64,000 nucleotides of DNA from an uncultured Bdellovibrionales bacterium (GCA_964505555.1 CAZDIO010000026.1:2924-66923), one strand, 5' to 3'. Numbered from the stretch's first letter, positions 8,697-55,268 are shown. The notes: generated by a model not told the origin, from the sequence alone. Translations and numbers: made by a program.

Positions 8697-8935
8697 CTAC
8701 TCGATTATCGCAATCGGCGGAAAGCAATCGTGCCCTGTCGATGTTACGGGAATTTTCCAACGGGCGTTAATCGTCAGCGCATCAAGCCATTTCACCGGAA
8801 CAAGATACCGACCCTCCTGCGACAATTTGTCGCATTGATTCGCTCAGCTAAGCTGCTATCAGCCACATACACAACATTTATCGTTGCGCATGGCTACGCA
8901 GCGGGTTCTTTGACAACGGAATATGGGAACGTAAG
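8697..8935 (+). pseudogene. radC: radC (JAB/MPN) remnant: N-terminally truncated, frameshifted, catalytic motif lost
   Basis: Positions ~8700-8786 align without gaps, with a few mismatches by eye, to 33236-33322 of the intact radC-like gene (translation 'YSIIAIGGKQSCPVDVTGIFQRALIVSASS'). In another frame the C-terminal part '...LIRSAKLLSATYTTFIVAHGYAAGSLTTEYG' parallels RadC '...LCEVGKLLRINVLDHIIISDDEHFSFSD'. The 'HNHPSGD' motif is absent. Confidence 0.55.
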
Positions 8936-32097: not shown

Positions 32098-32788
32098 ATA
32101 ACACCAGGACCGACATTGCAACCATGAGGAGCTCTTCGAACACCGTGATATAGGTTATCCAAGGCACGTGCATTGAATCTCACGGTGAGCAAGAAAACCT
32201 TTTATCACACCCACGTTTCCTTAACTCGTTTCATTTAAGGTATGACCTGACGATAGAAATGACTTCTTCACCCGCTTTCTTAATCTTTTTCGGATCCTTC
32301 TCCTCTACAATGTGAAAGCGTATGTGACCATCAAGAACTTCTGAGTTGATTTGATAGAGTTTATTACAACGCCACTGATTGATCGCTTAATCTGGCGCTC
32401 AGGCGATCCTTCCCACGAATACGTGAGGCATCAACCAACATTCGTCCCGCCCAACGGCAGACATTAAACTCAGCCAGTAGAGCGCGCATTCGGTCTCGCT
32501 GTTCTTGTTGCGACATCGAAAGCGTTGCGGTTAGTTGCACAAATACAAACCGTCCACGAAGCAACGGGAAGCGCTCGAGCAGACGCAAAACGGCCAAGAG
32601 CTTCTCCTCCACCCTTTCGTATAATCAAGCCGGTCAACACCAAAGCCAAGCAAGGTATCCGGGACAAGTTTCAAGTCGGCGTAGACACTTGCAAGACACC
32701 CCTCTAGACTTGGAACTTGTGTGCCCTATTGATAATCTACCGCACCCCCACCCACGCATCGCTGCGCTCTTGCTCACCCCGCTGAGGT

Positions 32789-32998
32789 GAACGGCACGGT
32801 GGTTGGCCCAAGACCCCGCCCCAAAACGGCCGCCAACTAAACCCAGCCACTCTCACCTCTCCGCCCCCGAGTTTAGTTGTCATCCGTTTTGCCTTCGGCG
32901 CAACCGCCGGCCAACCACCGCGCCGTTCGCATTTTAATTTTTTTCATCGCCCTCCACGAAGAGTGAGAGGGACGACGAAAAAAATTTGCCGTAGGCAA
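32789..32998 (+). other. about 210-nt GC-rich nested-hairpin element upstream of radC-ardC
   Basis: The outer 20-bp stem pairs 32789..32808 with 32909..32928 (1 mismatch). An inner imperfect stem pairs 32822..32842 with 32871..32891. A third hairpin pairs 32938..32954 with 32967..32984, flanked by T7/A7. A small hairpin lies at 32986..32998. No convincing ORF. Confidence 0.45.
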
Positions 32999-33036
32999 GA
33001 CTCTCTCTATTAACCAGAAACGTTGGGGGTAATGCG

Positions 33037-33534
33037 ATGCACATCGAAATAGAAAAACAAGAAAGCGATTACATTCGGGAAGTGATTGTTAAATATCGTG
33101 GACCGAAGCGAAAGAGTCCCTGCTTTCGAGACTCTGAAGCAGTGGCGAATTTTCTTCGTGGTGTCCTAGTAGACAACTCAAGAGAGCATTTCATAGCGCT
33201 TTTCCTCGATGCGGGTAACCGAGTCGCTAGTTATTCGATTATCGCAATCGGTGGAAAGCAATCGTGCCCTGTTGATGTTACCGGGATTTTTCAGCGAGCT
33301 TTGATAGTCGGCGCATCAAGTATCATCGTCAGTCACAATCACCCTTCAGGTGATACAAAACCCAGCGAGGAAGATAGACAAATAACGAAAGCACTTTGTG
33401 AGGTCGGAAAGCTTCTCCGGATCAACGTACTCGACCACATCATTATCAGCGACGACGAGCATTTTTCGTTTAGCGATAGCGAAATGATCGCGCGGAATAC
33501 CTTTTTTAACCGTAATTCTGACGAGGTGCGATGA
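33037..33534 (+). CDS. radC: RadC-like JAB/MPN-domain protein
   Basis: 'IIVSHNHPSGDTKPSEEDRQIT' is the JAMM motif, and 'LDHIII' is the C-terminal motif. Confidence 0.8.
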   Translation: MHIEIEKQESDYIREVIVKYRGPKRKSPCFRDSEAVANFLRGVLVDNSREHFIALFLDAGNRVASYSIIAIGGKQSCPVDVTGIFQRALIVGASSIIVSHNHPSGDTKPSEEDRQITKALCEVGKLLRINVLDHIIISDDEHFSFSDSEMIARNTFFNRNSDEVR

Positions 33535-34382
33535 TGGAAACAACGACTCTCGATATAAAGACACAATCCCAACAGAGTAAATTGAAGCAGATGACCGAAG
33601 AGGCGCTAGCGACTCTCTGCCGGTCGCTTGAAAACGGGAAGAGTGACGAAATGATTCGCTACTTGGAAGTGATGTCACGTTTCCCGCGATACAGCTTCAG
33701 GAATCTCCTCTTAATTCTGATTCAAAAACCTGACGCGAGTCGGGTTATGGGCTATGCCAGTTGGAAGCAACTCGGTAGGCAGGTGAAAAAGGATGAAAAG
33801 GCTATACGAATCTGGGCTCCGATGAGGACGAGACTCGGTGAAGAAAACAGAGTCGCTACAGACTCGCTCCAAGGAACAGATGGAGAGTCGAAAGAGATTC
33901 TCTTCTTTCGGCCCGTCTGTGTCTTTGACGTAAGCCAAACAGACGGGAAAGAACTGCCTAAACTCGCTGACGTCGCCGGCGATCCGGGAAGGTATTTACA
34001 GAGGCTCAAACAATTCGCTTCTGACCAAGGAATTCAATTAGGTTACAGCAATGAACTTCGAGCCGAAGGCGTTTCGAGGTGCGGGGAGATTCTCTTGAGA
34101 AGCGGTCTTGTTCCGGCAGTAGAATTTCATGTGCTCGCCCATGAAATCGCGCATGAGTTGATTCATAAAAGAGAAATGCGAAAGGATCTCTCAAAGCGTC
34201 AAGCTGAAACCGAAGCGGAAGCAGTGGCCTATGTCGTGAGTAAATCAATCGGGCTACATACTGGGAACGCTTCGAGTGATTATATTCAGTTGTGGAATGG
34301 CAATAAGGAGGCTGTAAGTAACTCTCTAAGCGCGATCAGGAGAACCGCTGCACTCATCACACAAACATTGCTTGATACGTGA
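33531..34382 (+). CDS. ardC: ArdC-like antirestriction protein (ssDNA-binding N-domain plus HExxH metalloprotease-like C-domain)
   Basis: 'RYSFRNLLLILIQKPDASRVMGYASWKQLGRQVKKDEKAIRIW' resembles the ArdC-N/DUF1738 pattern. 'HVLAHEIAHELIH' is present. ATGA overlap with radC. Confidence 0.8.
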   Translation: MMETTTLDIKTQSQQSKLKQMTEEALATLCRSLENGKSDEMIRYLEVMSRFPRYSFRNLLLILIQKPDASRVMGYASWKQLGRQVKKDEKAIRIWAPMRTRLGEENRVATDSLQGTDGESKEILFFRPVCVFDVSQTDGKELPKLADVAGDPGRYLQRLKQFASDQGIQLGYSNELRAEGVSRCGEILLRSGLVPAVEFHVLAHEIAHELIHKREMRKDLSKRQAETEAEAVAYVVSKSIGLHTGNASSDYIQLWNGNKEAVSNSLSAIRRTAALITQTLLDT

Positions 34383-34393
34383 CGTAGCGGCTT

Positions 34394-34440
34394 AGGAAGG
34401 AGACGAGAACGCATGTTGTATCTCGTTTCCTTCCTCATTT
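34394..34440 (+). terminator. probable terminator after ardC
   Basis: The stem AGGAAGGAGACGAG ... CTCGTTTCCTTCCT (1 mismatch) is followed by CATTTT. Confidence 0.45.
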
Positions 34441-34606
34441 TCGAATTGACCGGAGAGGCGCTGGAGCATTTTCCCGACGGATTTTCACGCACCGCTTACC
34501 GTTTTTTAGGGCAAGATAACTGGCGACTCTTTGGAAAAGTAAGTTGTTGTTATTAAAGATGAAAATGCGAGTCTCAAGTTGTAGTCGCTGTTTGTTGGAG
34601 AGTCTC

Positions 34607-34645
34607 TCTAGCGACTCTCGATTTTGACCGGAAAGAGTCGCTAGA
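34607..34645. promoter_or_regulatory. perfect 12-bp inverted repeat (TCTAGCGACTCT-N15-AGAGTCGCTAGA); candidate oriT or operator
   Basis: Read directly from the sequence. It lies in a non-coding stretch containing six GAGTC/GACTC sites within about 135 bp, about 1.4 kb upstream of the relaxase gene. Confidence 0.4.
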
Positions 34646-34676
34646 GCACCGCGAGTCGCGGATTCAGATTCGGAAT

Positions 34677-35216
34677 TCAGTCATTCTTGAAGCCGATTCG
34701 CCTACCCTTTCTTTCTTCAAGCGGAGCGATAAGAAGATCGATTGCTTCAAACACGATCCGAAACTGTTTGTCGTATTCGCTAAATTTAACGCTCAGCTTC
34801 TGCTTCAGATCTTTCAGTTCCCGAGCAAGGTCTTTGTGCTGTTCAATGAAACGACGGGCTTTAACGAATGCCCGCACGACGTGAATGCTCATCTCAATAG
34901 CCACAGGTGAGTTAAGCACCGTAGCAGCCATGATTGCTCCATGTTCGGTAAACACATAAGGAAGAGTGCGCCGACCACCCCACGATCTTGAGGTGCCAAA
35001 TTGGTACCTCAAGTTTGTAAGTTCTTGATCTGACAAGAGAAAGGCGAAATCTTGAGGGAACCTATCTATATTGCGTTTGAACGCCCGTATGAATTGCTTC
35101 GTTTCGACCCCGTAGACTTTTGCGAGATCTGAATCAAGCATTACTCTATGATTTCGGATCTCGTAAATACAACTCTCGATTTGTTCAATTGCGATAATTT
35201 CTTTCTTCCTCGGCAT
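34677..35216 (-). CDS. ORF6N-domain DNA-binding protein
   Basis: 'IRNHRVMLDSDLAKVYGVETKQFIRAFKRNIDRFPQDFAFLLSDQE...LPYVFTEHGAIMAATVLNSPVAI' matches the ORF6N/KilA-N-related domain pattern. Confidence 0.7.
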   Translation of the reverse strand: MPRKKEIIAIEQIESCIYEIRNHRVMLDSDLAKVYGVETKQFIRAFKRNIDRFPQDFAFLLSDQELTNLRYQFGTSRSWGGRRTLPYVFTEHGAIMAATVLNSPVAIEMSIHVVRAFVKARRFIEQHKDLARELKDLKQKLSVKFSEYDKQFRIVFEAIDLLIAPLEERKGRRIGFKND

Positions 35217-35436
35217 AGCACGAAGTAGCTAACACGTTTTAAATTAATTGTCTCGAATCAAATCTCTTTGTGACTATCCACATAAGTTTCTGTGGCGACT
35301 TGCCCCACTTACGATGAGGCATCTTACCTGATTGCGTAGAACCTCTCTTTCACTAACCACTTGTATTTTCACAACATCGCTCGCGACTCGCGTTGGTACG
35401 ATTCTCGCTACATACGAGTCTGAGGATTGTCATTTT

Positions 35437-36027
35437 ATGAAAGAGCAAAGTTCATACCAAAAGAAAAGACAGCTTCGACCTGTCGCGATTTCCGTTGCGA
35501 CATATTTGGCCGCTGCACTTGCGATTCTTTACATTATCCCGACACACTTCATTTTTAACAGAAGCGAAAGTATGCCTCTTGGTATCTACCGAATCACCGG
35601 GACGCCGATAACACGCGCTTCGATTGTCGGGGCATGCATCCCTGAACCGTATGCGACTCTCGTGCGCACACGAGGCTATGTCGAATCGGGGCGATGCATC
35701 GGTGGGATACGCCCGGTGATGAAATACGTTGCGGCCATCGCTGGCGACTCGGTTGAGATTCGCCTTAACGGTCTATTTATTAACGGAGAGTCTGTTCCGA
35801 ATACACGGATTTTATTGATTGATCCGCTGGGGCGGGCAGTTCCCCACCAGACTGGAATCTACGTTCTGAGACCGGGAGAATTCTGGCTTCTTTCCAACCA
35901 CGTAAGCGGCAGTCTGGACAGCCGTTACTTCGGGCCGGTTACGAAGATTCTCGGCGTAGTCGAACCGGTTCTCACCGAAAACGAACTCTGTGGCTTCTCC
36001 TTTCTCCACGCTTATCTGAACTGCTGA
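35437..36027 (+). CDS. traF: conjugative-transfer S26-family signal peptidase TraF
   Basis: 'NRSESMPLGIYR' (catalytic Ser region) and 'LLSNHVSGSLDSRYFGPV'. The ORF-track start at 35332 is probably too early. The ATG at 35437 has GAGGA upstream. Confidence 0.7.
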   Translation: MKEQSSYQKKRQLRPVAISVATYLAAALAILYIIPTHFIFNRSESMPLGIYRITGTPITRASIVGACIPEPYATLVRTRGYVESGRCIGGIRPVMKYVAAIAGDSVEIRLNGLFINGESVPNTRILLIDPLGRAVPHQTGIYVLRPGEFWLLSNHVSGSLDSRYFGPVTKILGVVEPVLTENELCGFSFLHAYLNC

Positions 36028-36039
36028 GGAGACTCTCTT

Positions 36040-39000
36040 ATGAAACAGATGCGAAGAATCAAGAAACCAATCATCAAGCTGGGCAAGATTCGGAAATGGT
36101 CGCAGAGGTCATTGAGAGTCGCAAGCGACTCTCAACAAATGTTTGACCGGTTTTCTCCCCGCTCCCAGAGAGTCGTTATCAAGGTCAAGCAGTCTTACAA
36201 CAAATCTCGCGGCACATGGCCTGCGCACGGACGCTATCTCGAACGGGACAAGAGTCGGTTCGGAGACGGCTTCTCAAAAACCGAGGATCGGGTGCACATC
36301 ACAAAGACTCTCGCCGAGTGGGAAGCCGCAGGAGATGAAAAGCTGCACAAAATTATCATCTCCCCGGAATACGCCGAGAGACTCGATCTCAAAGAACACA
36401 CGCGCGAACTACTGGCGCAAATGGAAAGGGACCTATCCCGGCAAACCGAATGGGTAGCGATTCTCCACAAGAACACCGATAATCACCATGTACATGTCGC
36501 CCTCCGGGGAATTGATACGGCGCACAAATCACTCGAAATTGAGGAATATCTAGGTGACATTCTGCGGACACGAAGTCGTGAACTCGTCACCAAAAAGCTT
36601 GGTCCGAGACTGTATCCCGAGATTCTGGAACGGCGAGAGAAAGAACTTTTTTCAGAGAGGCTCACCGATATTGACAGGGCTTTGCTCTGGAAGGCAGATT
36701 CAAATCTGATCATTCGGTTTCCCGAAAAAGAGTCTTCTAATTGGCGGCAAAATAAGTCCCGTGAACAGGAACGACTCCGGCTTACATTTCTTTCTGAGTT
36801 GGGGCTCTGTGAAAATATCTCACCTAATTCGTGGCGACTCTCTCCCGATCTTGCCGAGACTCTAAAGCGACTCTCTCTCCGACAACAGCTTATAAAAGAG
36901 CAGGTACCTGGCTGGGAATTTGTCCGGACGCTCAAGGCATCCGGCGTCATTCGAAAACGCCTTGACCTGGGAGAGACTCTTACCGGACGGGTTGTGGGAA
37001 CTAATATTCGAGATCCTTTTGGCGATCAGCAATTCATGCTCGTTGAAGGCACGGACGGTGTCACCTATCACTTCAACCAACCAAAAGGTGCCCGAGAGGG
37101 AAAGGTCAAAGTAAATGATGTAGTGACACTTGAAAGGCGCATCGCTGAAATATCAGACAACGACACAGCAGAGGTAACTAAAAGAGAGTTCACAGCGGTT
37201 CAAATCCACAGCGATTGGAAAAAGTGCCTACCCCTTGATTACGAGGCCGTGGCGACTCTCAAGCACACGAACGATTCTCGGGAAGACGCGCCACGAGTCG
37301 GTTTCGCAAACGACTGGGCTCAGGCAGTCCAGGAGAGAGTCGCTGAGCTTCGGGCTAAAAACTTTACACCGCACGATCGGGACTGGAAGACTCGCCTGGA
37401 AGCGATCCGTTTCACAGAAACAGACTCGAAAGCCTGGGAGTGGAATCCGAGAGATTACATCGAGTCAGAAGGCGAGAATGCAGCACCGGATTCCATCTCA
37501 GAGCACGAAGGCAAATTGAACAATGAGAATCGCTTGATTGTCGGAGAAATTCAGTGCGTAGGTGAAGAAAGAATCCTTGTTAAGGATATACGAGATTCAA
37601 CCGGAAGAATTGTCAAACTGAGCGATGCGGGACTTAGCTGGGCACCGAGTGTCGGCACTACGGTTTCAATACAAGCAAAGAGAACCCCTCACACCGAGAT
37701 TCGCCCAAGTGACGACAGAATCGCTGAGCTGATAACTAGCTCTGGAAGTATTCGCGAAGAGAATCTCAAGGACAACGAAAAGAAGTACATACTTGCACGA
37801 GCAAATACTTGGACACGTTGGGAGATTCTCCAGCAAAACAACGACGGGAGTTACCAACTACTCCGCAATCTTGCTGCTCCAAGCAAACAAGCCTTGCTGT
37901 CCTTGATGGAAGAGAAGGTCAGTCAAATACGCTTAAAAGTTAGCGAGGACGTGAAACGCCAACCAGCTTGGCTCAAGTTCCTTGACGAACAAGAATTGTC
38001 CTCAACCGCAAGCGGATTCACATCGATCGATAAACTCCTTAAGGAACTTGGTCGCCTGCCGTCTGACGGGCCTGTAACCTGGCTTACTAAAGCACTTAAA
38101 CGTCGTCAGGCTCTATGGGAGAGTCGCGGTATCGCGCTGGACGATAACTTTGAGAAAAACACAAGAACCTGGATCTCTGAAGGTCTACTTCCGACAACGC
38201 TCGCCAAAGGTGAACAAATCATCGGAAGAATTCTGGACCTTTCGATTAATGGCGGGCGCTACCTCGCACTTGATTCAACGGACGGAACAGTTCGGTATTT
38301 CAAAATTTCCGGCCAGATTCAAGAACAGATCAATAAGGAACAGCTTCCGGTCGGAAACGTTATTGTTCTCACAGGAAAATCATTCGACAAGCAAATAAAC
38401 GGAACTGTCCGCACCATCTACTATACCTCCCTGACGCGGTACATTGACTGGGCATCAAGTGAAGAACTTCTCAAGGATGCACGTGCGGACCAACACAACA
38501 GCATCGCACAGACAACCAAAGGTTTTGCAGAAGAGTGGAAGCGGAAAGTGGCGCAGATTAAGGATAGTCTTCGAGAATTCGATGAACTACCGCTGGTTCA
38601 CACTAAATTGCGTCAAGGAGAAGAACTTACAGGAAGGATAATAGACCTCGGGATAAATGACGGTGAAAAACTCTTGTTAGAGGGCACCGATAGAAAGCTC
38701 CATCTTATTTATCAGTCCAAGAAGATTAAAGAGGCCATTGCCCGATCTGAAATAACCATCGGAGATGTGATCACTCTCAGAGGTAGAGAATTCTCACTCG
38801 GTGAAAGAAAAATACAGTTTATCGACCTGAGCCGTCTTGAGCACTGGGCCGTCTCTTATGCACTTGATAAGTATGCCTTCACTCAAAACCCTGAAGAACT
38901 CTCTCGTTTAAGTACAGTAGCGCCAACTACCTTTACAAGAGAATGGAATCGGCAAGCCGCCAAGCGGAGGCGAGTGCTGGACGCGCGAGGCTATACGCTG

Positions 39001-40191
39001 GACGATGTTGAGCAACTACAGCGAAAGAAAGACGCGTCAAGACATTACAGAAGCGCTCGTGCTCGAACAACGGTCTCCCGAGACGGGATACCGCTTCAAG
39101 AAATTGAAATCGGAAGCCCCCTATCAGGAACCGTTACCGAAATAATCTTTTCCGAGGAAAGTTCTCGACCGGCATACCTTGTAATAAGAAAGCCTGTCGG
39201 GATTCTTGCACACATTCGAGCTGCACGAGGGATTGGTCACATAGTACGAGAAGGACTTGTTCAAAGCGGAGACGAAGTTACGCTTTCTACAAGAGAATTC
39301 AATCGGGACGGAAAACAGCTTTATTACACTGACGTTGAACACCATAATGTCCGAAGCAAAAGTCTCCGCAGCGAGGAGACAATCTTCGGTAGATTACTCA
39401 GCCGTGACCTCCATAAGGACCGATTCGCATTACTCGATAGTCCTGAAGGAAAGATTCACCTGGCCATTTCTCGGACTATAAGAAATCAGATTAAATCCCA
39501 AGATATTCGCGTTGGCGACGTGATTTTCTTTTCTGCAAAGAAAGTGTTCCATCACCGGTTGGAGCGAGGTGCGACAGTCATCTCGCTTACCGCGATTCCA
39601 TTACGTGATTGGAAACGGAGTGAGGAGTTCGACCGGGAAGTAATTCGCTATCTGCAAACGGGCACGCTTAACGAAGTGCTTCCGGCCCGAGAAGGTTTTC
39701 GCGACGAGTGGAACAAGGCGCTTCAGGCGCGCGCGGAAAAACTGCGAGAAGCAGGAATAGGGCTTTCAGATAATTGGGCAGATGAACTCCAACAGCTCCG
39801 TGAGCGAGAGCGTCATGAAGAACAGCAACGTCGCCCTGAACTCGGCAATATCCTGTCTCACGATCTCCGACACATTTCGCGACTTGAATCTCTCTTTACT
39901 CAAGCCACTCAAGCAGGCTGGATTGCACCTACCGAGGCAAATGCGCTGAACTTTGTATCAGCAGCAGTCAGAGCCACCGAGCATCGTCGAGATCCGGTTC
40001 GACATTTTATCGACATCGTGAAGGAAAACAACTGGAAGCAAATTCACCAACAAGACGAGGACAAAGCAAGACGATTGCTTGCAGGCTATCGCAATCGTTT
40101 TGCAAATGCGTTCTTAGTTCCGCTCAACCGAGAGGATGAACTCACCCAAGAACGTAAGAGCGAATCCGAAAGAGGAACAAAAAGCGATTAG
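36040..40191 (+). CDS. VirD2/TraI-type relaxase (DUF3363-type C-terminal region) expanded to 1383 aa by internal tandem modules
   Basis: 'ILHKNTDNHHVHVALRGI' is the HxDxxxHxH relaxase motif III. The gene sits between traF and traG. Five to six repeats follow the pattern 'L(T/S)GR(I/V)xD...xxLxLxGTDGxxhxh...IxxGDVITLxGREF'. Confidence 0.8.
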   Translation: MKQMRRIKKPIIKLGKIRKWSQRSLRVASDSQQMFDRFSPRSQRVVIKVKQSYNKSRGTWPAHGRYLERDKSRFGDGFSKTEDRVHITKTLAEWEAAGDEKLHKIIISPEYAERLDLKEHTRELLAQMERDLSRQTEWVAILHKNTDNHHVHVALRGIDTAHKSLEIEEYLGDILRTRSRELVTKKLGPRLYPEILERREKELFSERLTDIDRALLWKADSNLIIRFPEKESSNWRQNKSREQERLRLTFLSELGLCENISPNSWRLSPDLAETLKRLSLRQQLIKEQVPGWEFVRTLKASGVIRKRLDLGETLTGRVVGTNIRDPFGDQQFMLVEGTDGVTYHFNQPKGAREGKVKVNDVVTLERRIAEISDNDTAEVTKREFTAVQIHSDWKKCLPLDYEAVATLKHTNDSREDAPRVGFANDWAQAVQERVAELRAKNFTPHDRDWKTRLEAIRFTETDSKAWEWNPRDYIESEGENAAPDSISEHEGKLNNENRLIVGEIQCVGEERILVKDIRDSTGRIVKLSDAGLSWAPSVGTTVSIQAKRTPHTEIRPSDDRIAELITSSGSIREENLKDNEKKYILARANTWTRWEILQQNNDGSYQLLRNLAAPSKQALLSLMEEKVSQIRLKVSEDVKRQPAWLKFLDEQELSSTASGFTSIDKLLKELGRLPSDGPVTWLTKALKRRQALWESRGIALDDNFEKNTRTWISEGLLPTTLAKGEQIIGRILDLSINGGRYLALDSTDGTVRYFKISGQIQEQINKEQLPVGNVIVLTGKSFDKQINGTVRTIYYTSLTRYIDWASSEELLKDARADQHNSIAQTTKGFAEEWKRKVAQIKDSLREFDELPLVHTKLRQGEELTGRIIDLGINDGEKLLLEGTDRKLHLIYQSKKIKEAIARSEITIGDVITLRGREFSLGERKIQFIDLSRLEHWAVSYALDKYAFTQNPEELSRLSTVAPTTFTREWNRQAAKRRRVLDARGYTLDDVEQLQRKKDASRHYRSARARTTVSRDGIPLQEIEIGSPLSGTVTEIIFSEESSRPAYLVIRKPVGILAHIRAARGIGHIVREGLVQSGDEVTLSTREFNRDGKQLYYTDVEHHNVRSKSLRSEETIFGRLLSRDLHKDRFALLDSPEGKIHLAISRTIRNQIKSQDIRVGDVIFFSAKKVFHHRLERGATVISLTAIPLRDWKRSEEFDREVIRYLQTGTLNEVLPAREGFRDEWNKALQARAEKLREAGIGLSDNWADELQQLRERERHEEQQRRPELGNILSHDLRHISRLESLFTQATQAGWIAPTEANALNFVSAAVRATEHRRDPVRHFIDIVKENNWKQIHQQDEDKARRLLAGYRNRFANAFLVPLNREDELTQERKSESERGTKSD

Positions 40192-40206
40192 GAGAACGTA
40201 ACAAAA

Positions 40207-42051
40207 ATGGAAAAACAGCATATTCGAGAAATCATTCTGGTCTCAATAGCAGTATTCTCCATTGGAAGTGGCATCTTTATTGCCCACCAACTAGCCGCTC
40301 ATTCCATTAGCTTCCTCTGGATATTCAGCGTTGCAACGACTTTAGTTGCTGGAGCACTTTTTACTGTTCTCCGTCCATACCTCCCGAAGGACACCCAACA
40401 GAAGGGCGACTACGGATCGGCGCATTGGGCCACGGACCGAGAGATAAGAGCGTCAGGATTGTTGAGCATTCGAGGGATCGTCGTCGGAGCGATCAAGCGA
40501 AACGGCAAGCCTCAGCTTCTTCGCTACGACGGCGAGGGTCACGTCATTGTGGTGAGTCCCACCCGAAGTGGCAAAGGTGTTACTGTGGTTGTTCCTACAG
40601 CGCTTACCTGGGAGCACAGCATTCTCTTTAACGACATCAAAGGCGAGCTCTGGGCGCTCACTGCCGGATGGCGAAAGAAACATTTTAATTCAGTGTGTCT
40701 CAGGTTCGACGCAACAAGCAGTGATAGAACCACCGCTCACTGGAATCCGCTTCTTGAGATTCGGCCATATCCAAATGATGTCCGTGACGCTCAAAATATT
40801 GCCCTTACACTTACAACATCCGATTCGTCACTCTCGCGGACGGACAACGAACGCCATTGGCGGATCATGGGGGCGAGACTGATAAAGGCAGCAATACTTC
40901 ACCAGTTGTATGCTGGCAGCGAGAAAACACTTCCCGGGTGCTACCGTCTGCTTACAACCACCAGCCGCGACCTCGAAGATACCTTGCTTGCAATGCTTCG
41001 CGCTTCACACGACCCGGAGCTTCGCTGTAAGTGGGTTGATTCAGACGACAATAAACCCACCGCTACCCACCCCGCAGTTGCGCATATCGCACGGGATATG
41101 TTGAGCAAGTCAGAGAAGGAGCGAAGCTCGATTGTGAGTGCCGCGATAAGTTACCTTGAACCGTTTGACGATCCGATCATGGCTGAAAACGTCTCCGAAA
41201 GCGATTTCTGCTTGTCAGATTTGATGAATCATGAACAGCCGGTGAGTCTGTACCTGACCACCCCAGTTGCCGACCTCGAACGTGTCCAGCCGCTTCATCG
41301 GCTGTTCTTTACACTTGCCGGCACCAGAAACACCGAGCAGCTAAGCTTCCAAGACGGAAGACCGGCGCCCTCTTACAAACATCCCCTGCTTCAAATCTTC
41401 GATGAATGCGCGCATCTCGGTTATTCACCGACAATTCAACAGCATTTCTCACTTGCAAGTGGCTACGGTATCTACGGACTCTTCGTATTTCAGGATTTCT
41501 CTCAACTTTTTGAGCTTTATGGCAAAAACGAATCAATCACCAGTAACTGCGATGTAAAGATAGCCTTTGCCCCAAATAGTCTGGAAACCGCTAATTACCT
41601 GTCGAAGCTCCTTGGCACGGAGACCCGCGAAAAGAAGGCGGGCGTGTTTGATGACCTTTTCAACAAAAGAGGAAGCAAACCAAAGCAGTCCCTTGGAAGG
41701 CTGCTTCTTACCCCGGATGAATGCGCCCGGCTTCCCCGAGATAAGAGCATCATCCTTAGAAACGGTTTCCCGCCAATTTTAGGAGAAAAGATCCCATACT
41801 ATAAAATCCCCGAGCTTCTCCAACGTTCGAAGATTCCGCCGCCGCTGTCTGACAAGCTTACTCTGAAGGAAGCACGTTGGCCCTTGATTTCTGAGCAGTC
41901 AGGGTCTGGAGAGAAGTCGGTCGCAAAAACTTCTGTTGCGCCAGAACAAGAAGCCTCCAAAAAAACGACGCAATCAAAAAGGAAACAAATTCCCAAAAAC
42001 GTAACGCAGCAGATCGAGTTACTCCCCGTAAACAAAAAGGCAAATGAGTGA
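40207..42051 (+). CDS. traG: type IV secretion coupling protein TraG/VirD4
   Basis: Two N-terminal TM helices, 'YGSAHWATDREI', Walker A 'SPTRSGKGVTVVVPT' and Walker B-like 'LLQIFDECAHLG'. Confidence 0.85.
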   Translation: MEKQHIREIILVSIAVFSIGSGIFIAHQLAAHSISFLWIFSVATTLVAGALFTVLRPYLPKDTQQKGDYGSAHWATDREIRASGLLSIRGIVVGAIKRNGKPQLLRYDGEGHVIVVSPTRSGKGVTVVVPTALTWEHSILFNDIKGELWALTAGWRKKHFNSVCLRFDATSSDRTTAHWNPLLEIRPYPNDVRDAQNIALTLTTSDSSLSRTDNERHWRIMGARLIKAAILHQLYAGSEKTLPGCYRLLTTTSRDLEDTLLAMLRASHDPELRCKWVDSDDNKPTATHPAVAHIARDMLSKSEKERSSIVSAAISYLEPFDDPIMAENVSESDFCLSDLMNHEQPVSLYLTTPVADLERVQPLHRLFFTLAGTRNTEQLSFQDGRPAPSYKHPLLQIFDECAHLGYSPTIQQHFSLASGYGIYGLFVFQDFSQLFELYGKNESITSNCDVKIAFAPNSLETANYLSKLLGTETREKKAGVFDDLFNKRGSKPKQSLGRLLLTPDECARLPRDKSIILRNGFPPILGEKIPYYKIPELLQRSKIPPPLSDKLTLKEARWPLISEQSGSGEKSVAKTSVAPEQEASKKTTQSKRKQIPKNVTQQIELLPVNKKANE

Positions 42052-42671
42052 GGTGTGATATGAGTGAGATCGCCATAAGTGAGAAAAAAGAAAACATCGA
42101 ACGGTCCGAAGAGAGTCTTGTCCAGGCAACAATCAGAATCCGTGCCGATCAGAGAAACCGTCTCGAAGTGGAACGTCGCGCTCGGGGGACAAATCTGGCC
42201 GATGTCCTGCGTGACAATCTCGATCTAGCATTTGCGGTAAAGGAAGAACTCTCAAAAATAGTTGAAGGAGAATACGACCAGAACGATCCCAAGAATGCGC
42301 CTCGTCTTGTCCACTCGCTGCTCTTTCGAGTGGAAGAACGTATTTTAGGCGCTCTTGATAGCCTATCGCAACGTATTGAGCATGGGTTTGCAAGTCATCA
42401 AAACGGGAAAAGCAAACGAAACAATGCAGACGGATCTACTCCAAGCGCAACGTCAGCCAGTGCGAACGGCAACGACATCAGCGTAACGATCGAAAACTTC
42501 CTGTCGCTCGTTACCAACAGTGAGGAGCACTCACCAGCAATTTGGATCGGCGCATTTCTTGAGGTCGTTCCCCGACTGGAACTCGTGGGGATGGAACAGC
42601 TTGGTGAACTTCAATATAAAGGCGAAACGTGGCTTGAAGAACATGGGTACTACAGTGCCAACAACGCTTAA
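42048..42671 (+). CDS. ribbon-helix-helix (CopG-like) protein with an extended C-terminus
   Basis: 'ATIRIRADQRNRLEVERRARGTNLADVLRDNLDLAF' fits beta-strand/helix/helix. A CopG-family gene directly after traG is a conserved arrangement in TraF-relaxase-TraG type ICEs. Start at the GTG at 42048 or the ATG at 42060. Confidence 0.4.
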   Translation: MRCDMSEIAISEKKENIERSEESLVQATIRIRADQRNRLEVERRARGTNLADVLRDNLDLAFAVKEELSKIVEGEYDQNDPKNAPRLVHSLLFRVEERILGALDSLSQRIEHGFASHQNGKSKRNNADGSTPSATSASANGNDISVTIENFLSLVTNSEEHSPAIWIGAFLEVVPRLELVGMEQLGELQYKGETWLEEHGYYSANNA

Positions 42672-43022
42672 CCAGAAAGATAAGTATTTTCGGCTTATTA
42701 TGCACGCCGATGATATATTATAAGCAGCACTGCCCAAAGATCCATCTATAATATTACCTGTCCTTGTACTACTAACACTGCTCTTAGAAGGAGTTTATTC
42801 AGGGTAGACGATTTTGACGTGTTAGCGTCAATGAAAGGGCGCTCTAGCGGTGGCCAAAACTCGGTGACCGAGGGCGCTCCAGTGCCAACAGGTTTTGAGC
42901 ACGTTGCGATAATCTTTCGCTGTTGCTCTAGCTCCAGAAGATTTTCGAAGCCGATTGGATAGTCACTCAGACTATTGAACCGGCTTCGAGATATCCAAGG
43001 TAACTATTGAGAGGAGCAAACA

Positions 43023-43346
43023 GTGAAGGATATGATCGGTAGTAACGTTGCGGTCGAGATGGTTTACCCGGATGGGACCTACATTTCCCTGAACGGTAAG
43101 CTGACGGCTGTCGACGGCCATCTGTTCCACCTGGAGGAATGTTCTTTCGAGGACATCACTCCGCCTCACATCCGAAAGTCGCAAGCGGCTGGCGGAACGA
43201 GGCACGGTGCCAAGTCCAGCGGTGTCGTTCTCGGTTCACGATGGGTCAACTCGATGTCTCCGATCGTCGTTTCGGTCACAAGCATCGAAAGCGGCGTCGC
43301 TGACTTCTGGAGATGTCTCGCGGACGGTACGGTTCGGGACGCATGA
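43023..43346 (+). CDS. hypothetical small protein (possibly Sm-like fold)
   Basis: GTG start preceded by GAGGAG. 'VAVEMVYPDGTYISLNGKLTAVDGHLFHLEE' resembles an Sm/LSm beta-meander. No family assignment is possible. Confidence 0.35.
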   Translation: MKDMIGSNVAVEMVYPDGTYISLNGKLTAVDGHLFHLEECSFEDITPPHIRKSQAAGGTRHGAKSSGVVLGSRWVNSMSPIVVSVTSIESGVADFWRCLADGTVRDA

Positions 43347-43627
43347 TCCACCGGAATCACTGGTTGGTGAAATCTCTCCACCTGACGAGAGACGGTTTTC
43401 GTGGCGCTGCATGCGCCTCTTTCTGAGCGCGAAGTTTGTATTTGCTGAGTAATATCAGGAATATTCAGTAAATACGGGAAGTCGCGTTTGCTAGGGTTTT
43501 AATGCTTTTCGGGAGCATTGACAGGCTTTCTCTTTTTTTCGGGAGTCTTCTCTCAGGTAGATTTGCGTTTTTCGCAAATGCACCTGGGAGAATGATTCCA
43601 TTTACACTAACGAAAAGGAGAACCGCC

Positions 43628-44229: not shown

Positions 44230-45669
44230 CTACTTCAGGAGACGGTAGCACGGTCCGCAAACACGTCCTTTGGTCGGCTCTTTCGGGTGAAGGTATGGCA
44301 GCCGCTTGGTCTGGGTGCACGCAACGCATTCCGCGATCGGCGCGCTCAAGTTCCGAGAACAAGTGCTGCAAATCCTCTTTCCGTCGTGAGTGCGGGGAAG
44401 ACGCTTCTTCTTTCCGCACGCAGCGCAATCACCGACCGGAGGAGCGAGAGCATCCCTGCACGTCTTGCATACTCTGCCTTTTTTCCGATCCTTCGGGTGA
44501 TTAAACGGCAGTGGTTTATTCTCACCACATTCACCGCATCTCCCTTTTGGACCGGGGTTGAGCTTCTTGTAGCAAGTTACGCACACGCTCCGGCGCTTGC
44601 TCTTGGGCTTGTGCTTGTCTTTCGGGTGCTTGTGCCGCAGTCGCTTTTTCTTGCGACATACGGAGCATCTACCCAAAGGAGGCTTCAGCCGCTGATAGCA
44701 AGCCCTGCAAATCCTGCCCTTGCTCTTGTCCTGAGGATGGTAGAGCGGAAGCAGCTTCTCCTCGCTGCACTCAGCACACTGACCGAAAGGAGTGGTAAGA
44801 AGCATGTAGCAGTCCTGACATACTCTTCCCTTTTCCTCATGGTCAGGCTCAGCTGGCGGTGAGACGCCGTTTGCTTGTGCTCTCTCCACCTCTGTCGCGT
44901 TGTCGGGATGATTGTAACTGAGCCGCTTCTCTTCGCCGCACTCAGCACATTCACCCACTGGCGGCGCAAGCCGCCAGTAGCAGGCGTGACAGACCTTTCC
45001 CAGGCTCGGTTCTTGAGGGTGATGGTTCGTTAGCTGCTTCTCGAAACCACACCCTGGACAGATGCCAACCGCATATGCGAGGTCCTTGTAGCATCCCTCG
45101 CAAACGCGGCCCAAGTCCGCGTCATCCGGATGGTTGTAGGGGAGGAGCTTCTCTTCCTTGCAAGCAGCGCATCGAGCTTTGGGAGCCCGAAGATGCTTGT
45201 TACACACCCTGCAAATCCTTCCCTTCGCTGGGTCGGTGGGGTGTATATTCGGAAGTCGCCTTGTCTTGCCGCACCCCGTGCACCTGCCAACAGGCGTTAT
45301 TAGCAGCTCGTAACAGTCTTTACATATCCTCCCCTTCTTTTCATCTTCAGGATGAAAATTAGGAAGGGATTTTTCCTTGCCGCACTCAGCACATTCGCCC
45401 ACCGGCGGCGCAAGCCGGGCGTAACACGCGTTACAGACTCTTCCCTTGCCTTCCTCAAGCGGATGATTGTACGGAAGCGACCTTGTCTTGCCGCATTCGC
45501 CGCATTCTGCCACCGGAGACCCCAGTTTGGTCCGACAGGAATCGCAGACCCTTCCCAATTCGGGGTCTTGGGGATGGAAGTAAGGGAGTTCTCGCTTGTT
45601 GCCACAAGCAACACAGATTCCAATCGGGATGGCGGCCTTCAAGGCGCCGCCGGAATTGTTAGCGCACAT
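44230..45669 (-). CDS. 479-aa basic protein made of 12 tandem ~37-aa CxxC-N19-21-CxxC (zinc-ribbon-like) repeats
   Basis: Repeat consensus: C-x-x-C-G-x-x-K-x-L-P-x-x-H-P-x-D-x-x-K-G-R-V-C-x-x-C-Y-x-x-L-x-P-P-V-G-x. I counted 12 units by eye. Unit 7 has a 20-aa insertion and unit 11 is shortened. Confidence 0.6.
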   Translation of the reverse strand: MCANNSGGALKAAIPIGICVACGNKRELPYFHPQDPELGRVCDSCRTKLGSPVAECGECGKTRSLPYNHPLEEGKGRVCNACYARLAPPVGECAECGKEKSLPNFHPEDEKKGRICKDCYELLITPVGRCTGCGKTRRLPNIHPTDPAKGRICRVCNKHLRAPKARCAACKEEKLLPYNHPDDADLGRVCEGCYKDLAYAVGICPGCGFEKQLTNHHPQEPSLGKVCHACYWRLAPPVGECAECGEEKRLSYNHPDNATEVERAQANGVSPPAEPDHEEKGRVCQDCYMLLTTPFGQCAECSEEKLLPLYHPQDKSKGRICRACYQRLKPPLGRCSVCRKKKRLRHKHPKDKHKPKSKRRSVCVTCYKKLNPGPKGRCGECGENKPLPFNHPKDRKKGRVCKTCRDALAPPVGDCAACGKKKRLPRTHDGKRICSTCSRNLSAPIAECVACTQTKRLPYLHPKEPTKGRVCGPCYRLLK

Positions 45670-45884: not shown

Positions 45885-46964
45885 TTACCTTGCCGGTCGT
45901 TCAAGCAACGGAGCGATCGCTCGCTTTGTGGTGACGTTCAGTCCGTTGACAAGAGCGATCACATCCGATTGGATGAGTTGCTCCGGATGCCGAAACAACG
46001 GGATGAGCTGAGTCACGATCAGCAATCCCACGTTTCGAAGCAGGTCGTCGGCCGCTGCTTGCAGATTCCCACTTGCCCGTTGGAGCCCGTTCATCAGATC
46101 AAGCACTTCCGCAATTCCGACTTTGGCGTCGGCAGAAGTACCCTGACCAGTCACGGAGAAGTAGTCCCGAACTGATTCTCCGAGCACGTGAGCATGAACT
46201 GCGATGACTCCTTCAGCGTCGAGGCGTTTGTTTGAATTCAACGTGACGTGAACGCCTCGCCGCACGCTATAATGCTTAAGCGTGCGGTGCTTTTGGCCAT
46301 CGCGCGGACGACGTTGCGGGTCGGCTTCGCGCTTTGCCCGCCGGACCATCGCCCGGATCGCCCGAAGCGTGGGCTCGTCCTGCTCAATGCTCTCGGCAAC
46401 GCGGGTCTGAAGCTCCGCATCGCCAAGCTCCGTGAGCAGATAGGCCGCTTGAGTCGAGAGCTGCCCAGCTTCGAGCTTCTTGATCAACGGCTCGGGCAGC
46501 GCAAGGAGTGACAGCGGGCGCGTCACTGACGTCCGTTTGACCCGCAGTTGCTGAGCCAAATCATTGGCGCTGCAACGTTTGAGGTCCATCAGACGCTTGT
46601 AGGAACGTGCCCGTTCGAGCGCCGACAAACCTACCGAATGCAGATCATCGATGAGCTGCTCGGTGAGGAGTTCGTCGGGGGCGAACGGTCCATCGTTCAC
46701 GATACAAGTGAGCGATTCGATTTCGGCGAGGCAAGCAGCGCGCCATCGGCGTTCGCCGCCGACAACAAAAAATGTCTGCTCATCGCCAACTTCATCGCTT
46801 GGTCGCACACGCAGCGGATATTTCAATCCATGAGCCTTCAGACTCTCCGCTAGATTCTGAAGTTCACCCTCATCGAAGACTTGACGCGGTTGCGTCGGAT
46901 CGGGCTTAATGAGCCGTACTTCGATGTCCTGCACTTGCGTGCTGTCAATCAGACCAGTAGTCAT
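45885..46964 (-). CDS. parB: ParB/Srx-domain protein (ParB-like nuclease/partition family)
   Basis: 'IKPDPTQPRQ', 'PLRVRP' and 'FFVVGGERRWRAACLA' are ParB N-terminal motifs. The C-terminal half is unassigned. Confidence 0.75.
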   Translation of the reverse strand: MTTGLIDSTQVQDIEVRLIKPDPTQPRQVFDEGELQNLAESLKAHGLKYPLRVRPSDEVGDEQTFFVVGGERRWRAACLAEIESLTCIVNDGPFAPDELLTEQLIDDLHSVGLSALERARSYKRLMDLKRCSANDLAQQLRVKRTSVTRPLSLLALPEPLIKKLEAGQLSTQAAYLLTELGDAELQTRVAESIEQDEPTLRAIRAMVRRAKREADPQRRPRDGQKHRTLKHYSVRRGVHVTLNSNKRLDAEGVIAVHAHVLGESVRDYFSVTGQGTSADAKVGIAEVLDLMNGLQRASGNLQAAADDLLRNVGLLIVTQLIPLFRHPEQLIQSDVIALVNGLNVTTKRAIAPLLERPAR

Positions 46965-54575: not shown

Positions 54576-54587
54576 CCCTATATTCCT

Positions 54588-55268
54588 TCAGTCGAGCTCA
54601 ACGGATTGAACGGCATCTTGAATTTTCTTTTCTTCAAGGCTCTTTACTCGGATCTTAAATTCAACCTTTCGGCACCTTTCTTTTTCAGGTTCAAGTGAAG
54701 TTAATTCTGCTTTACATTCGCGCTCCCCGCGACCACTGGCTGAAGACAAATCAAGAAAACAACTATGATTATTTCCGGCGTTCCGAAGCATCGACTTCAT
54801 TACGACTAACGACCGATCTTGACTCAGTCTAAGATTAAAATATGGGTCATTCGGGTTCTGGTCTGGGTCAGTATGCCCTTCTATCACAATGGAGCTAAGT
54901 GCATCCTTAAGCTCATCACTGCACACGATAGACAATAGTTTAGGAGTTAATTCTCCAAGAAACTGTTCTCCAATTTCTTTAAGAATCGCTCGACTTTTGT
55001 CGAACTGAATCCATTTTTCCGGCACGATGACTATTAATGTGTACGGATCTTTTGCATCTTCGATGACGCTGACGCCTTCAAATGCATCACCCTGAAAAAC
55101 ATTCTTGAGTGCTTCTTCGATCGTTTGCTTAACAGTTTTACGATTTGATTCAGCAGCGTGTTGATCGTTACGGATGTAATTAACCAAGAGCAGGACGAAG
55201 ATGACCATCAAGCTTGTCATCATGTCTGTGAGAGAACTATTAAATGCAGAATGGCTAGTGTCACTCAT
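54588..55268 (-). CDS. zorB: ZorB-like MotB/OmpA-family stator subunit
   Basis: The N-terminal TM 'LTDMMTSLMVIFVLLLV' carries the conserved MotB-type Asp. The OmpA-like C-domain is 'VIEGHTDPD...NLRLSQDRSLVV'. It overlaps the zorA stop by 1 nt. Confidence 0.75.
   Translation of the reverse strand: MSDTSHSAFNSSLTDMMTSLMVIFVLLLVNYIRNDQHAAESNRKTVKQTIEEALKNVFQGDAFEGVSVIEDAKDPYTLIVIVPEKWIQFDKSRAILKEIGEQFLGELTPKLLSIVCSDELKDALSSIVIEGHTDPDQNPNDPYFNLRLSQDRSLVVMKSMLRNAGNNHSCFLDLSSASGRGERECKAELTSLEPEKERCRKVEFKIRVKSLEEKKIQDAVQSVELD

Follow-up and report, generated by a model that had tools for sequence, protein, structure and literature searches.

A helically phased array of GANTC pseudo-palindromes around a putative transfer origin in an uncultured Bdellovibrionales bacterium

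A dense and locally confined array of short DNA sites is present in a 64,000-nucleotide stretch of DNA from an uncultured Bdellovibrionales bacterium, referred to here as the window. The array (32999..38127, with no strand assigned) contains 77 GANTC sites, 42 of the form GA(C/G)TC and 35 of the form GA(A/T)TC, including 23 full 9-bp pseudo-palindromes. The sites are under DNA-level selection, even within genes, they are helically phased, and they lie around a conserved nick-like motif. The array likely surrounds the transfer origin of an integrated mobile element. We infer occupancy of the array by a protein, the identity of this binder and the effect of its binding, and we consider it about as likely as not that the region serves an element-encoded protein as a dispersed set of binding sites.

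Composition and extent of the array

The initial annotation described an over-representation of the 8-mer GCGACTCT and its complement AGAGTCGC, with 13 copies in 33609-38127, and every coordinate and strand was reproduced. These are 13 of the 16 copies in the window, and dinucleotide shuffles of the window gave 2.75 +/- 1.74, with 0 of 100 shuffles reaching 16. The counts for the GAGTC/GACTC core were also right (18 in 36116-37466 and 6 in 34525-34657), as was the independence from reading frame, the sites of the array occupying all three codon phases. The whole genome (3,453,142 bp, i.e. 3.45 Mb) holds 76 copies of GCGACTCT, or 0.022 per kb, and this rate predicts 0.097 copies for the 5.3 kb of 32900-38200. 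The genome-wide observed/expected ratio of the 8-mer is 1.07 by a maximal-order Markov model. The 8-mer is thus not equally frequent throughout the genome, and general compositional bias is not the cause of its local excess.

The 8-mer is one variant of the 9-bp pseudo-palindrome G(A/C)GANTC(T/G)C, and the claim of a GANTC core holds. The half-sites flanking GANTC show the same preference on both sides, with G at -2 in 51% and A or C at -1 in 83%; the genome background for GANTC flanks is flat and has no symmetric G(A/C) preference. The 77 GANTC sites in 32900-38200 compare with about 19 expected, and the 23 full 9-mers with 0.49 (about 0.5). Both centre types are over-represented, GA(C/G)TC at 42 vs 6.6 and GA(A/T)TC at 35 vs 12.3. 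First- and second-order Markov models fitted to the region's own sequence predict 0.3 copies of the 8-mer against 13 observed, 35.6 +/- 5.7 GANTC against 77, and 1.0 +/- 1.0 GMGANTCKC against 23.

The array is the most extreme GA(C/G)TC cluster of the genome, and no second cluster occurs elsewhere in it. When 2-kb windows were slid across the genome, the count reached 22 in the array, compared with a mean of 2.5 (sd 1.7) and an off-contig maximum of 11. The edges of the array are sharp, and the remaining conserved backbone (38.2-43.4 kb) has no site excess.

Selection on the sites and helical phasing

The array runs through several genes of the element. A RadC-like JAB gene (33037..33534, plus strand; PF04002, E 2.8e-37), on the inferred leading side, has a weak site excess. 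In the ArdC-N-like gene (33531..34382, plus strand; PF08401), there are 14 GANTC sites compared with 4.4 in synonymous shuffles, and the TraF-like S26 peptidase gene (35332..36027, plus strand; PF10502) has 12 compared with 6.3. The true start of traF may be the ATG at 35437. The relaxase gene (36040..40191, plus strand) encodes tandem beta-rich repeats in addition to its MobA/VirD2 nuclease domain and DUF3363. Residues 1-700 of the relaxase carry 35 GANTC sites vs 16.1 in synonymous shuffles, and residues 701-1383 carry 0 GA(C/G)TC vs 4.0. The ORF6N/KilA-N-type gene (34677..35216, minus strand; PF10543) leaves a gap in the array, having 2 GANTC sites vs 2.5 expected, and the type IV coupling protein gene (40207..42051, plus strand; PF02534, E 4.4e-86) is without site excess. 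Overall, an excess of GANTC over synonymous shuffles is absent in the C-terminal half of the relaxase, the coupling protein, the gene of the 207-aa candidate binder described below (rhh207) and ORF6N.

Two related loci were examined, the close relative L013 (82% identical), which is the sole strong comparison, and the distant L014. In L013, 61 of the 77 sites are still GANTC (79%), compared with a background of 54% (p = 2.7e-6). Conservation is 87% for full sites and 75% for bare GANTC sites that lack the flanks; L013 itself has 25 full sites. In both GA(C/G)TC and GA(A/T)TC, the fixed G, A, T and C are better conserved than the central N. Because the site counts exceed those of synonymous shuffles in ardC, traF and residues 1-700 of the relaxase, and because conservation in L013 is above background, we conclude that the sites are selected at the DNA level. 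In L014, DUF2958 and BrnT/BrnA genes take the place of ardC and ORF6N, and 17 of its 18 GA(C/G)TC sites are found inside 3.3 kb, from DUF2958 to the relaxase start. The whole-locus excess in L014 is not significant (18 vs 12.1, reached in 16 of 200 shuffles), and phasing is not evident there.

The spacing of the GA(C/G)TC sites has a period of 10.5 bp (global p <= 0.002 when pairs up to 100-200 bp apart are considered), and close site pairs are 11 bp apart. The signal peaks within the coding sequence of traF and the relaxase. Codon structure, with its 3-bp period, cannot generate such spacing, and the 10.5-bp period points to B-form duplex DNA. Two perfect symmetric elements are part of the array. 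A 12-bp inverted repeat, TCTAGCGACTCT-N15-AGAGTCGCTAGA (34607..34645, no strand assigned), places two motif copies in the gap between the ardC and ORF6N genes. At the relaxase gene's 5' end, a 24-bp palindrome, TTGAGAGTCGCAAGCGACTCTCAA (36112..36135, no strand assigned), holds two full sites with a spacing of 11 bp, and both are retained in L013. A GACTC at offset 87 from the relaxase start has the same offset in L014, by position arithmetic and not by codon alignment.

These properties bear on the idea that the array has no function of its own and is a compositional relic, left for instance by tandem repeats that have decayed, by hitch-hiking or by k-mer bias inherited from a donor genome. 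The small number of related loci, of which the distant one is weak, leaves some room for it. We nevertheless regard a relic as very improbable, with sites that exceed both synonymous shuffles and local Markov models, that are conserved above background, phased and sharply bounded, and that show no excess in the 38.2-43.4 kb backbone or in ORF6N.

The sites could instead be a cluster of GANTC adenine-methylation targets of the CcrM or M.HinfI type, whose methylation state gates leading and tra expression or the use of oriT. By analogy with GATC clusters and SeqA or Dam, such an array would carry methyl groups on both strands in the donor, and on one strand or neither once transferred. A pure GANTC reader would predict the enrichment of both centre types and the retention of bare sites above the 54% background, and the greater conservation of the four fixed bases agrees with it as well. 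A plain GANTC enzyme predicts neither the symmetric flank preference nor the 10.5-bp phasing. The target of a CcrM/HinfI-type enzyme should be free of flanks, and the sites have symmetric G(A/C) flanks, yet bare sites are also conserved. The GANTC observed/expected ratio is 1.02 genome-wide, therefore there is no visible host pressure on the site, and no methyltransferase was seen among the scanned window ORFs. The search for a GANTC methyltransferase, suggested at the outset, returned one PF01555 methyltransferase gene in the 93.6%-complete genome, on contig C24. Among solved structures, its product is closest to N4-cytosine and TTHA0409-type methylases and has no CcrM match at E <= 0.001; a CcrM-like enzyme was not identified in this search. 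Methylation as the primary role is quite improbable in our assessment. It is compatible with a methylation-sensitive binder, and hence not strictly exclusive of a binding array.

A putative transfer origin within the array

A putative oriT nick region is located at 34505..34535 on the minus strand. It reads AGAGTCGCCAGTTATCTTG followed by CCC, with the nick tentatively placed between 34512 and 34511. The MOBP-like motif at this position (about 34512, minus strand) is GTTATCTTG followed by C, and the array extends on both sides of it. The MOBP nick consensus is (C/T)ATCCTG(C/T) (PMC3772185), and TATCTTGC, with one mismatch to this consensus, is invariant in three loci. The stretch from GAGAGTCG to GTTATCTTG is likewise unchanged between the window and both relatives, L013 and the more distant L014. 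A copy of the array motif lies 3 nt 5' of GTTATCTTG, and this adjoining AGAGTCG is invariant at the three loci, one of which has a relaxase only 56% identical. The 12-bp inverted repeat described above is ~90 nt 5' of the putative nick motif on the same strand.

The array had been assigned to the leading region of transfer. This is right for about 1.5 kb on the leading side of the putative nick, and the other part, about 3.6 kb, is on the last-entering side. Short, frequent and frame-blind words near the first-entering DNA are what one would look for in a polar or uptake-type signal (Chi, KOPS, DUS) or in a primase recognition site on the entering single strand. Such a signal is scarcely credible here, with two thirds of the array beyond the nick motif in the DNA that enters last, a palindromic motif and no strand bias (23 GACTC to 19 GAGTC in plus-strand orientation). 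The excess is also local and not genome-wide, and the earlier proposal of a Chi-like or uptake-like signal is rejected on these grounds.

The initial annotation had also considered a protein-binding array read by ParB, ArdC or the relaxosome. A relaxosome-linked protein-binding array is the best fit because the flanks are symmetric, the sites are phased at 10.5 bp, and a motif copy is found beside the nick motif. ParB (45885-46964) is disfavoured as the reader, since the segment 43915-47300 has no counterpart in the available L013 stretch, though L013 keeps the array. ArdC is dispensable as a factor in L014, which is without ardC and still shows an excess.

The candidate binder and known systems

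The most likely candidate for the binder of the array is a protein of 207 aa (203 aa if translation begins at the ATG at 42060) whose N-terminal segment is ribbon-helix-helix (RHH)-like. Its gene (42048..42671, plus strand) was previously unannotated and is directly downstream of the coupling protein gene. In a family of 30 members, R30 and R32 are nearly invariant, and several members are on contigs equal in size to those bearing relaxase homologues. The protein belongs to no Pfam family, even at E <= 1. The RHH assignment comes from several weak signals: sequence matches to the omega repressor (E 0.18-0.25), top Foldseek rows (E 2.4) that are TacA2 antitoxin chains from the TacT2-TacA2 complex, and nearest Atlas clusters that are 65-79% RHH_1 (score 0.89). 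The monomer model has a pLDDT of 69.5 and no strand. A homodimer is predicted via residues 22-33 and 50-65, with a score of 0.56 vs 0.00 for the best control, and the runs show at least 62% contact agreement and pLDDT of at least 58. Of 30 solved homodimers, 20 reach the mark used here, as does 1 of 23 single chains. RHH dimers are textbook structures, and this pass may therefore reflect likeness to solved structures. The link between the 207-aa protein and the motif is circumstantial.

Another reader of a binding array is conceivable, and we consider it unlikely. The tandem OB-like modules of the relaxase, the ORF6N/KilA-N protein, a small backbone protein or a host nucleoid protein could each take this role. 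The relaxases of this element family are about 1,300-1,380 aa long with repeated beta-rich modules, so that repeats in the protein co-occur with repeats of the DNA site. OB/S1-like modules usually bind single strands and would not yield B-form phasing. The ORF6N gene is central in the array, and its protein is disfavoured since no ORF6N homologue was found in L014, which retains the excess. For a small backbone protein, the ORF at 43023-43346 is an example; it evolves like a real gene, with 17, 10 and 37 substitutions at codon positions 1, 2 and 3. A host protein should have sites elsewhere, and the genome has no further cluster.

If the 207-aa RHH-like protein is the reader, the array would provide helically phased double-stranded DNA sites for a symmetric (dimeric) element-encoded protein and would be nucleated at the transfer origin. 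The recognised unit would be the GANTC core with its symmetric flanks, one copy of which abuts the conserved nick motif, and inverted and 11-bp-spaced pairs would add sites in the oriT gap and where the relaxase gene has its 5' end. About 70 more sites would carry the array 1.5 kb into the leading genes radC and ardC and, on the other side, over 3.6 kb of traF and the relaxase gene's first half. On the model of TraM, ParG and omega, the protein may load cooperatively along one helix face. Once bound, it could assemble an extended relaxosome in which oriT is presented to the coupling protein. Alone or in combination with this, it could repress the leading and tra genes until transfer. In either case, coating of the array by a protein could couple oriT recognition, tra control and leading-region expression via one large nucleoprotein body, and it would be a clear case of dual coding, with one stretch of DNA specifying both a protein and a binding array.

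A broader proposal, possible but doubtful, is a kilobase-scale, sequence-specified 'relaxosome domain'. Here, the element family would have evolved dozens of phased GANTC palindromes within its transfer and leading genes, to either side of the nick, and an RHH adaptor would coat them or the expanded relaxase would read them through its tandem modules. The resulting centromere-like body would dock oriT at the coupling protein and silence the covered genes, and the GANTC methylation state could possibly sense recent transfer. If true, it would be a new organisational level for conjugative DNA processing. The element family is uncultured and carries metal-resistance and defence functions, and the motif and the candidate protein together offer a direct experimental handle.

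The RHH dimers of pED208 TraM read GANTC at sbmA (PMC3159463). The TraM-sbmA/B/C system of the F-like plasmid pED208 (PMC3159463) shares with the array a GANTC pseudo-palindrome core, and TraM is a relaxosome accessory protein with an N-terminal RHH dimer. The several TraM sites lie on defined helical faces beside the nick, and TraM bridges oriT to the coupling protein, a role that recalls the position of the 207-aa gene. The TraM sites occupy about 100-200 bp of non-coding DNA with a 12-bp stagger, in contrast to ~77 sites over 5.1 kb of mostly coding DNA with a 10.5-bp period. The relaxase here combines MobA/VirD2 and DUF3363 domains with a MOBP-like nick motif and is not of the MOBF type. 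The C-terminal domain of the 207-aa candidate is unlike that of TraM, and no ORF between 33.0 and 44.9 kb matched a TraM family when scanned against Pfam.

ParG recognises arrayed ACTC boxes in either orientation (PMC3130281), and the ACTC box is contained in GACTC. In ParG-parH/OF of TP228, a type Ib partition system (PMC3130281), and in the omega heptad arrays, RHH dimers coat short degenerate boxes. Binding strengthens with box number, and the array is both operator and assembly platform. The ParG and omega arrays are contiguous and non-coding, with an 8-bp register over about 100 bp, and are accompanied by a ParA-type ATPase. The sites here are dispersed but phased, and no ParA gene was seen beside the 207-aa gene.

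The array also resembles clusters of methylation sites in its local excess of a short palindromic target and in a GANTC core with a free central base. Examples are GATC at oriC with SeqA and the CcrM GANTC sites at the Caulobacter origin. The array differs from them in its flank preference and helical phasing, and no cognate methyltransferase was identified. In the networks of KorB OB sites (IncP-1) and ArdK or StbA sites (R388), one plasmid protein has many palindromic binding sites scattered through transfer and leading DNA, an arrangement that would permit a burst of expression upon entry into a new host. These networks have about 5-12 longer sites, mostly located in promoters, whereas the array here is dense, phased and inside coding sequence. 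The scale speaks against a relaxosome-type binding array, since known relaxosome accessory sites cover 100-300 bp and are non-coding, in contrast to 5 kb of coding sequence here. Such sites are normally few and within a few hundred bases of a non-coding oriT; here, ~60 extra sites are present in coding DNA over 5 kb, in helical register.

The repeated unit and its genomic distribution

The initial annotation reported an 8-mer with a GAGTC core that is strongly over-represented between 33609 and 38127. The word, GCGACTCT, is present in 16 copies on both strands of the window, and 13 of these lie within 33609-38127 at exactly the coordinates and strands first reported. The counts of the GAGTC core were reproduced as well. 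Dinucleotide shuffles contain 2.75 +/- 1.74 copies, and none of 100 reached 16. We also checked whether the 8-mer is equally frequent in the host, and the word is not common there. The whole genome, known from an incomplete assembly alone (3.45 Mb in 179 contigs, 44.6% GC, 93.6% complete), holds 76 copies. At that density about 0.1 would fall in 32900-38200 (5.3 kb), and the genome total is 1.07 times the expectation of a maximal-order Markov model. In this assembly the window spans 2924-66923 of contig C26.

The 8-mer is real, but it is one variant of a degenerate unit rather than the unit itself. In an unbiased comparison of k-mers between 32900-38200 and the genome, GACTC/GAGTC ranked first (42 versus 6.6), and GAATC/GATTC was enriched as well (35 versus 12.3). 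The best 9-mer was GCGACTCTC, with 10 of its 20 genome copies in this region. When each GANTC was aligned as two half-sites, those in the region showed G at -2 (51%) and A or C at -1 (83%), alike on both sides, whereas the genome's other 24,056 half-sites, from about 12,000 GANTC sites, lack such a flank preference. Because the preference is symmetric in the region and absent in the genome, the 9-bp pseudo-palindrome G(A/C)GANTC(T/G)C is taken as the unit. The region contains 23 full 9-mers where 0.49 would be expected, with 5 others in the window and 340 in the genome. Under Markov models trained on the region itself, the 77 GANTC sites compare with 35.6 +/- 5.7 and the 23 9-mers with 1.0.

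A whole-genome scan at 2-kb resolution found up to 22 GA(C/G)TC sites in the region, against a mean of 2.5 (sd 1.7) and a highest value off the contig of 11. The region is the single extreme outlier of the genome for GA(C/G)TC, and it equals the genome maximum for GA(A/T)TC. This outlier status and the Markov observed/expected ratios reject genome-wide composition as the cause. The bounds of the array are sharp, at 32999 and 38127.

Selection, helical phasing and conservation

Pfam searches identified, in and beside the array, genes for a RadC-like JAB protein (33037-33534, plus strand), an ArdC-N-like protein (33531-34382, plus), an ORF6N/KilA-N-type protein (34677-35216, minus), a TraF-like S26 peptidase (35332-36027, plus), a 1383-aa relaxase with a MobA/VirD2 nuclease and DUF3363 (36040-40191, plus), and a VirD4/TraG-type coupling protein (40207-42051, plus). 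Array sites occupy all three codon phases, in agreement with the frame independence noted initially. Synonymous codons were shuffled within each gene, which leaves the encoded protein and that gene's set of codons unchanged. GANTC exceeds the shuffles in ardC (14 observed, mean 4.4, p < 0.001), in traF (12, mean 6.3, p = 0.002) and in relaxase residues 1-700 (35, mean 16.1, p < 0.001), and no excess was found in relaxase residues 701-1383, the coupling-protein gene, the gene for a 207-aa protein that follows it, or the ORF6N gene. These shuffles reject codon or amino-acid usage as the cause of the array. A mutational bias across the whole region is made less likely by the gap in the array at ORF6N. 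The stretch encoding relaxase residues 701-1383 (38140-40191) has 0 GA(C/G)TC sites versus 4.0 in synonymous shuffles, which may indicate avoidance just beyond the array.

The spacings of GA(C/G)TC sites cluster at 11, 22, 31-33, 42-43, 52-54, 63, 73-74, 82-86 and 94-96 bp, and the cosine statistic is maximal at 10.5-10.75 bp. Relative to a null in which positions were jittered by 10-40 bp, the phasing has a global p <= 0.002 over periods of 5-20 bp and pair distances up to 100, 150 and 200 bp. It is weaker for all GANTC sites (p about 0.01-0.05) and strongest within traF and the relaxase gene. Such a 10.5-bp period suggests that B-form duplex DNA is recognised on one of its faces; it would not be predicted for a plain enzyme target or for a signal on single-stranded DNA.

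Comparative evidence is sparse, comprising one close relative and one partial, distant relative, both from metagenomes. The close relative (L013, contig FKKE01009734) is colinear with 32746-43443 of the window at 82% nucleotide identity, and its 5 kb corresponding to the array carry 42 GA(C/G)TC sites and 25 full 9-mers. It retains 61 of the 77 GANTC sites (79%); gapped 4-of-5 words of that stretch, taken as background, are retained at 54% (p = 2.7e-6). Identity per position is 0.89-0.97 at G, A, T and C and 0.80-0.86 at the central N, compared with 0.84 for the region, and several site changes (GAGTC to GAATC, GACTC to GAGTC) leave GANTC intact. Retention is 87% for full sites and 75% for bare GANTC. 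The relative prefers GAGACTCTC and the window GCGACTCTC, both of which match the same degenerate palindrome. The phasing pattern in L013 is alike but not independent of that in the window. The array is a real feature of extreme statistical strength, under selection and with an organised structure.

GANTC is the target of CcrM and HinfI, and the array would fit a cluster of methylation sites. The four fixed bases around a free N in the comparison with L013 agree with such a cluster, as does the retention of bare GANTC, and it could coexist with a methylation-sensitive binder. However, neither the flank preference nor the phasing is expected of a plain GANTC enzyme. The genome's sole PF01555 gene, on contig C24, is similar to enzymes of the N4-cytosine and TTHA0409 types, the scanned ORFs of the window yielded no methyltransferase, and the genome-wide observed/expected ratio of GANTC is 1.02.

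The distant, truncated relative (L014) has radC, a DUF2958 gene, brnT/brnA, traF and the start of a relaxase gene whose product is 56% identical, with ardC and ORF6N replaced. Its GA(C/G)TC sites fall almost entirely (17 of 18) within 3.3 kb from DUF2958 to the relaxase start, and its half-sites show the same trend. Over the whole locus the count is not significant (18 versus 12.1, reached in 16 of 200 shuffles), and there is one full 9-mer, so this locus is suggestive only. No further relatives were found in two scans of genome contigs, by relaxase alignment and by alignment of the 207-aa family, or in two scans of viral contigs; 40 relatives have distant relaxases only, at about 30% identity. 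In a Cupriavidus gilardii plasmid (NZ_OP484954, L023:9412-12612), 6 of the 7 GACNGTC sites of the 21-kb locus lie within 3.2 kb around a DUF3363 relaxase gene, a cluster that stays weak once multiple testing is taken into account. In related genomes, four loci near distant DUF3363/VirD2 relaxases have different features of doubtful comparability. For these reasons, the array is not claimed to be general.

Two other kinds of repeats were seen near distant relaxases. In genomes G025 and G017 (L026:3943-6855 and L025:7569-9693), the perfect palindrome GTGTGCCTCTATAGAGGCACAC, about 20-22 bp long, and its close variants are scattered in 6-8 copies across 2-3 kb. They lie upstream, by a few kb, of a distantly related pair of relaxase and coupling protein (about 30% and 33% identity), and may form an analogous array of operator or centromere type, built on another motif. 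At a locus of 33% GC in genome G010 (L028:1046-4426), 3 kb of DNA contains 17 TCGA sites versus 1.4 expected. They lie 6-9 kb upstream from a distant relaxase and may be a matter of composition.

The putative oriT and the mobile element

The oriT probably lies at about 34530-34509 on the minus strand, judging from its sequence, where AGAGTCGCCAGTTATCTTG is followed, past the putative nick, by CCC. The stretch GAGAGTCG..GTTATCTTG is identical in the window and both relatives, and the adjoining DNA has diverged. Within it, TATCTTGC has one mismatch to the MOBP nick consensus (C/T)ATCCTG(C/T) and resembles the Helicobacter tfs4 substrate GTTATCCTGC (PMC3772185). A copy of the motif lies 3 nt 5' of the putative nick. 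About 90 nt farther 5' on the same strand, two copies form a perfect 12-bp inverted repeat (34607-34645), with more palindromic copies alongside. A nick here would mean that the minus strand is transferred, with ardC and radC entering first in template sense, which would fit a leading region, and the relaxase gene entering last. The initial description of the array as leading region would then hold for about 1.5 kb, the other 3.6 kb or so being trailing DNA.

Farther from the array are two integrases, metal-efflux cargo, ParB and a Zorya-like operon. The last (49743-57190, minus) encodes a ZorA-like protein of 640 aa, a ZorB-like one with an OmpA domain, an EH_Signature protein, and one protein combining SNF2 with an Mrr nuclease. 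The window showed no mating-pore genes, and a VirB4/TrbE homologue (an 842-aa ORF) is on another contig (G000:C46:867-4124, L024) that has no motif array; hence the element may be mobilisable, or split by assembly. The promoter/terminator scan of the region gave 3 promoter-like sites versus 3.3 in shuffles, Rfam had no match in 32-44 kb, and no tRNA was found in the window.

Segment 43915-47300, with a multi-zinc-ribbon/FYVE-like protein (44230-45669, minus) and ParB (45885-46964, minus), has no counterpart in the compared L013 stretch and looks like an insertion into the backbone. A 107-aa ORF without a family (43023-43346, plus) evolves in the manner of a real gene, with 17, 10 and 37 substitutions relative to L013 at codon positions 1, 2 and 3. 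A 98-bp stretch (8689-8786) is 85% identical to part of the L013 radC and looks like the remnant of a second leading-region gene, in a neighbouring island starting with the integrase at 5190.

Candidate readers and known systems

Most likely, the array has oriT at its centre and serves to bind a protein that the element encodes; this function is inferred. A Chi-like or uptake signal was rejected. ParB was rejected as the reader on account of the missing counterpart of its segment in the compared stretch of L013, and ORF6N and ArdC were rejected as required binders, neither being found in L014.

The candidate binder is the 207-aa protein, encoded by a conserved backbone gene (42048-42671) that starts at most 10 nt from the stop codon of the coupling-protein gene. 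Pfam offers no family for it. Its N-terminus is RHH-like by sequence (ribbon-helix-helix), with R30 and R32 nearly invariant in 24 aligned homologues. The family has 30 members, and among 124 same-phylum genomes no homologue was found except the window's own. Several members are on contigs (403,353; 104,454; 81,024; 66,673; and 46,543 bp) whose sizes match those of relaxase-homologue contigs, so the two families appear to travel together. Omega repressor matches were weak (E 0.18-0.25). The AlphaFold monomer is all-helical (pLDDT 69.5), and a Foldseek search with it returned nothing at E <= 0.001; its top rows were TacA2 antitoxin chains in the TacT2-TacA2 complex (E 2.4), and TacA2 presumably carries an RHH domain. 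As a lead only, RHH_1 makes up 65-79% of the nearest Atlas clusters (score 0.89). A predicted homodimer of residues 15-120 scored 0.56 versus 0.00 for the best control; 20 of 30 solved homodimers attained the pass mark, as did 1 of 23 single chains. The runs had at least 62% contact agreement and pLDDT of at least 58, and the predicted interface (residues 22-33 and 50-65) has the pattern of an RHH dimer. RHH dimers are textbook structures, so this pass may reflect likeness to solved structures. DNA binding by the protein is inferred.

In pED208, RHH dimers of TraM read pseudo-palindromic GANTC at sbmA beside oriT, and TraM bridges oriT to the coupling protein (PMC3159463). ParG of TP228 coats degenerate arrays of ACTC boxes in either orientation (PMC3130281). 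The array described here would work alike but belongs to neither system. In contrast to pED208, no TraM family protein is present and the relaxase type differs. The array also differs from both in its extent, being 5 kb long, mostly coding, and dispersed yet phased.
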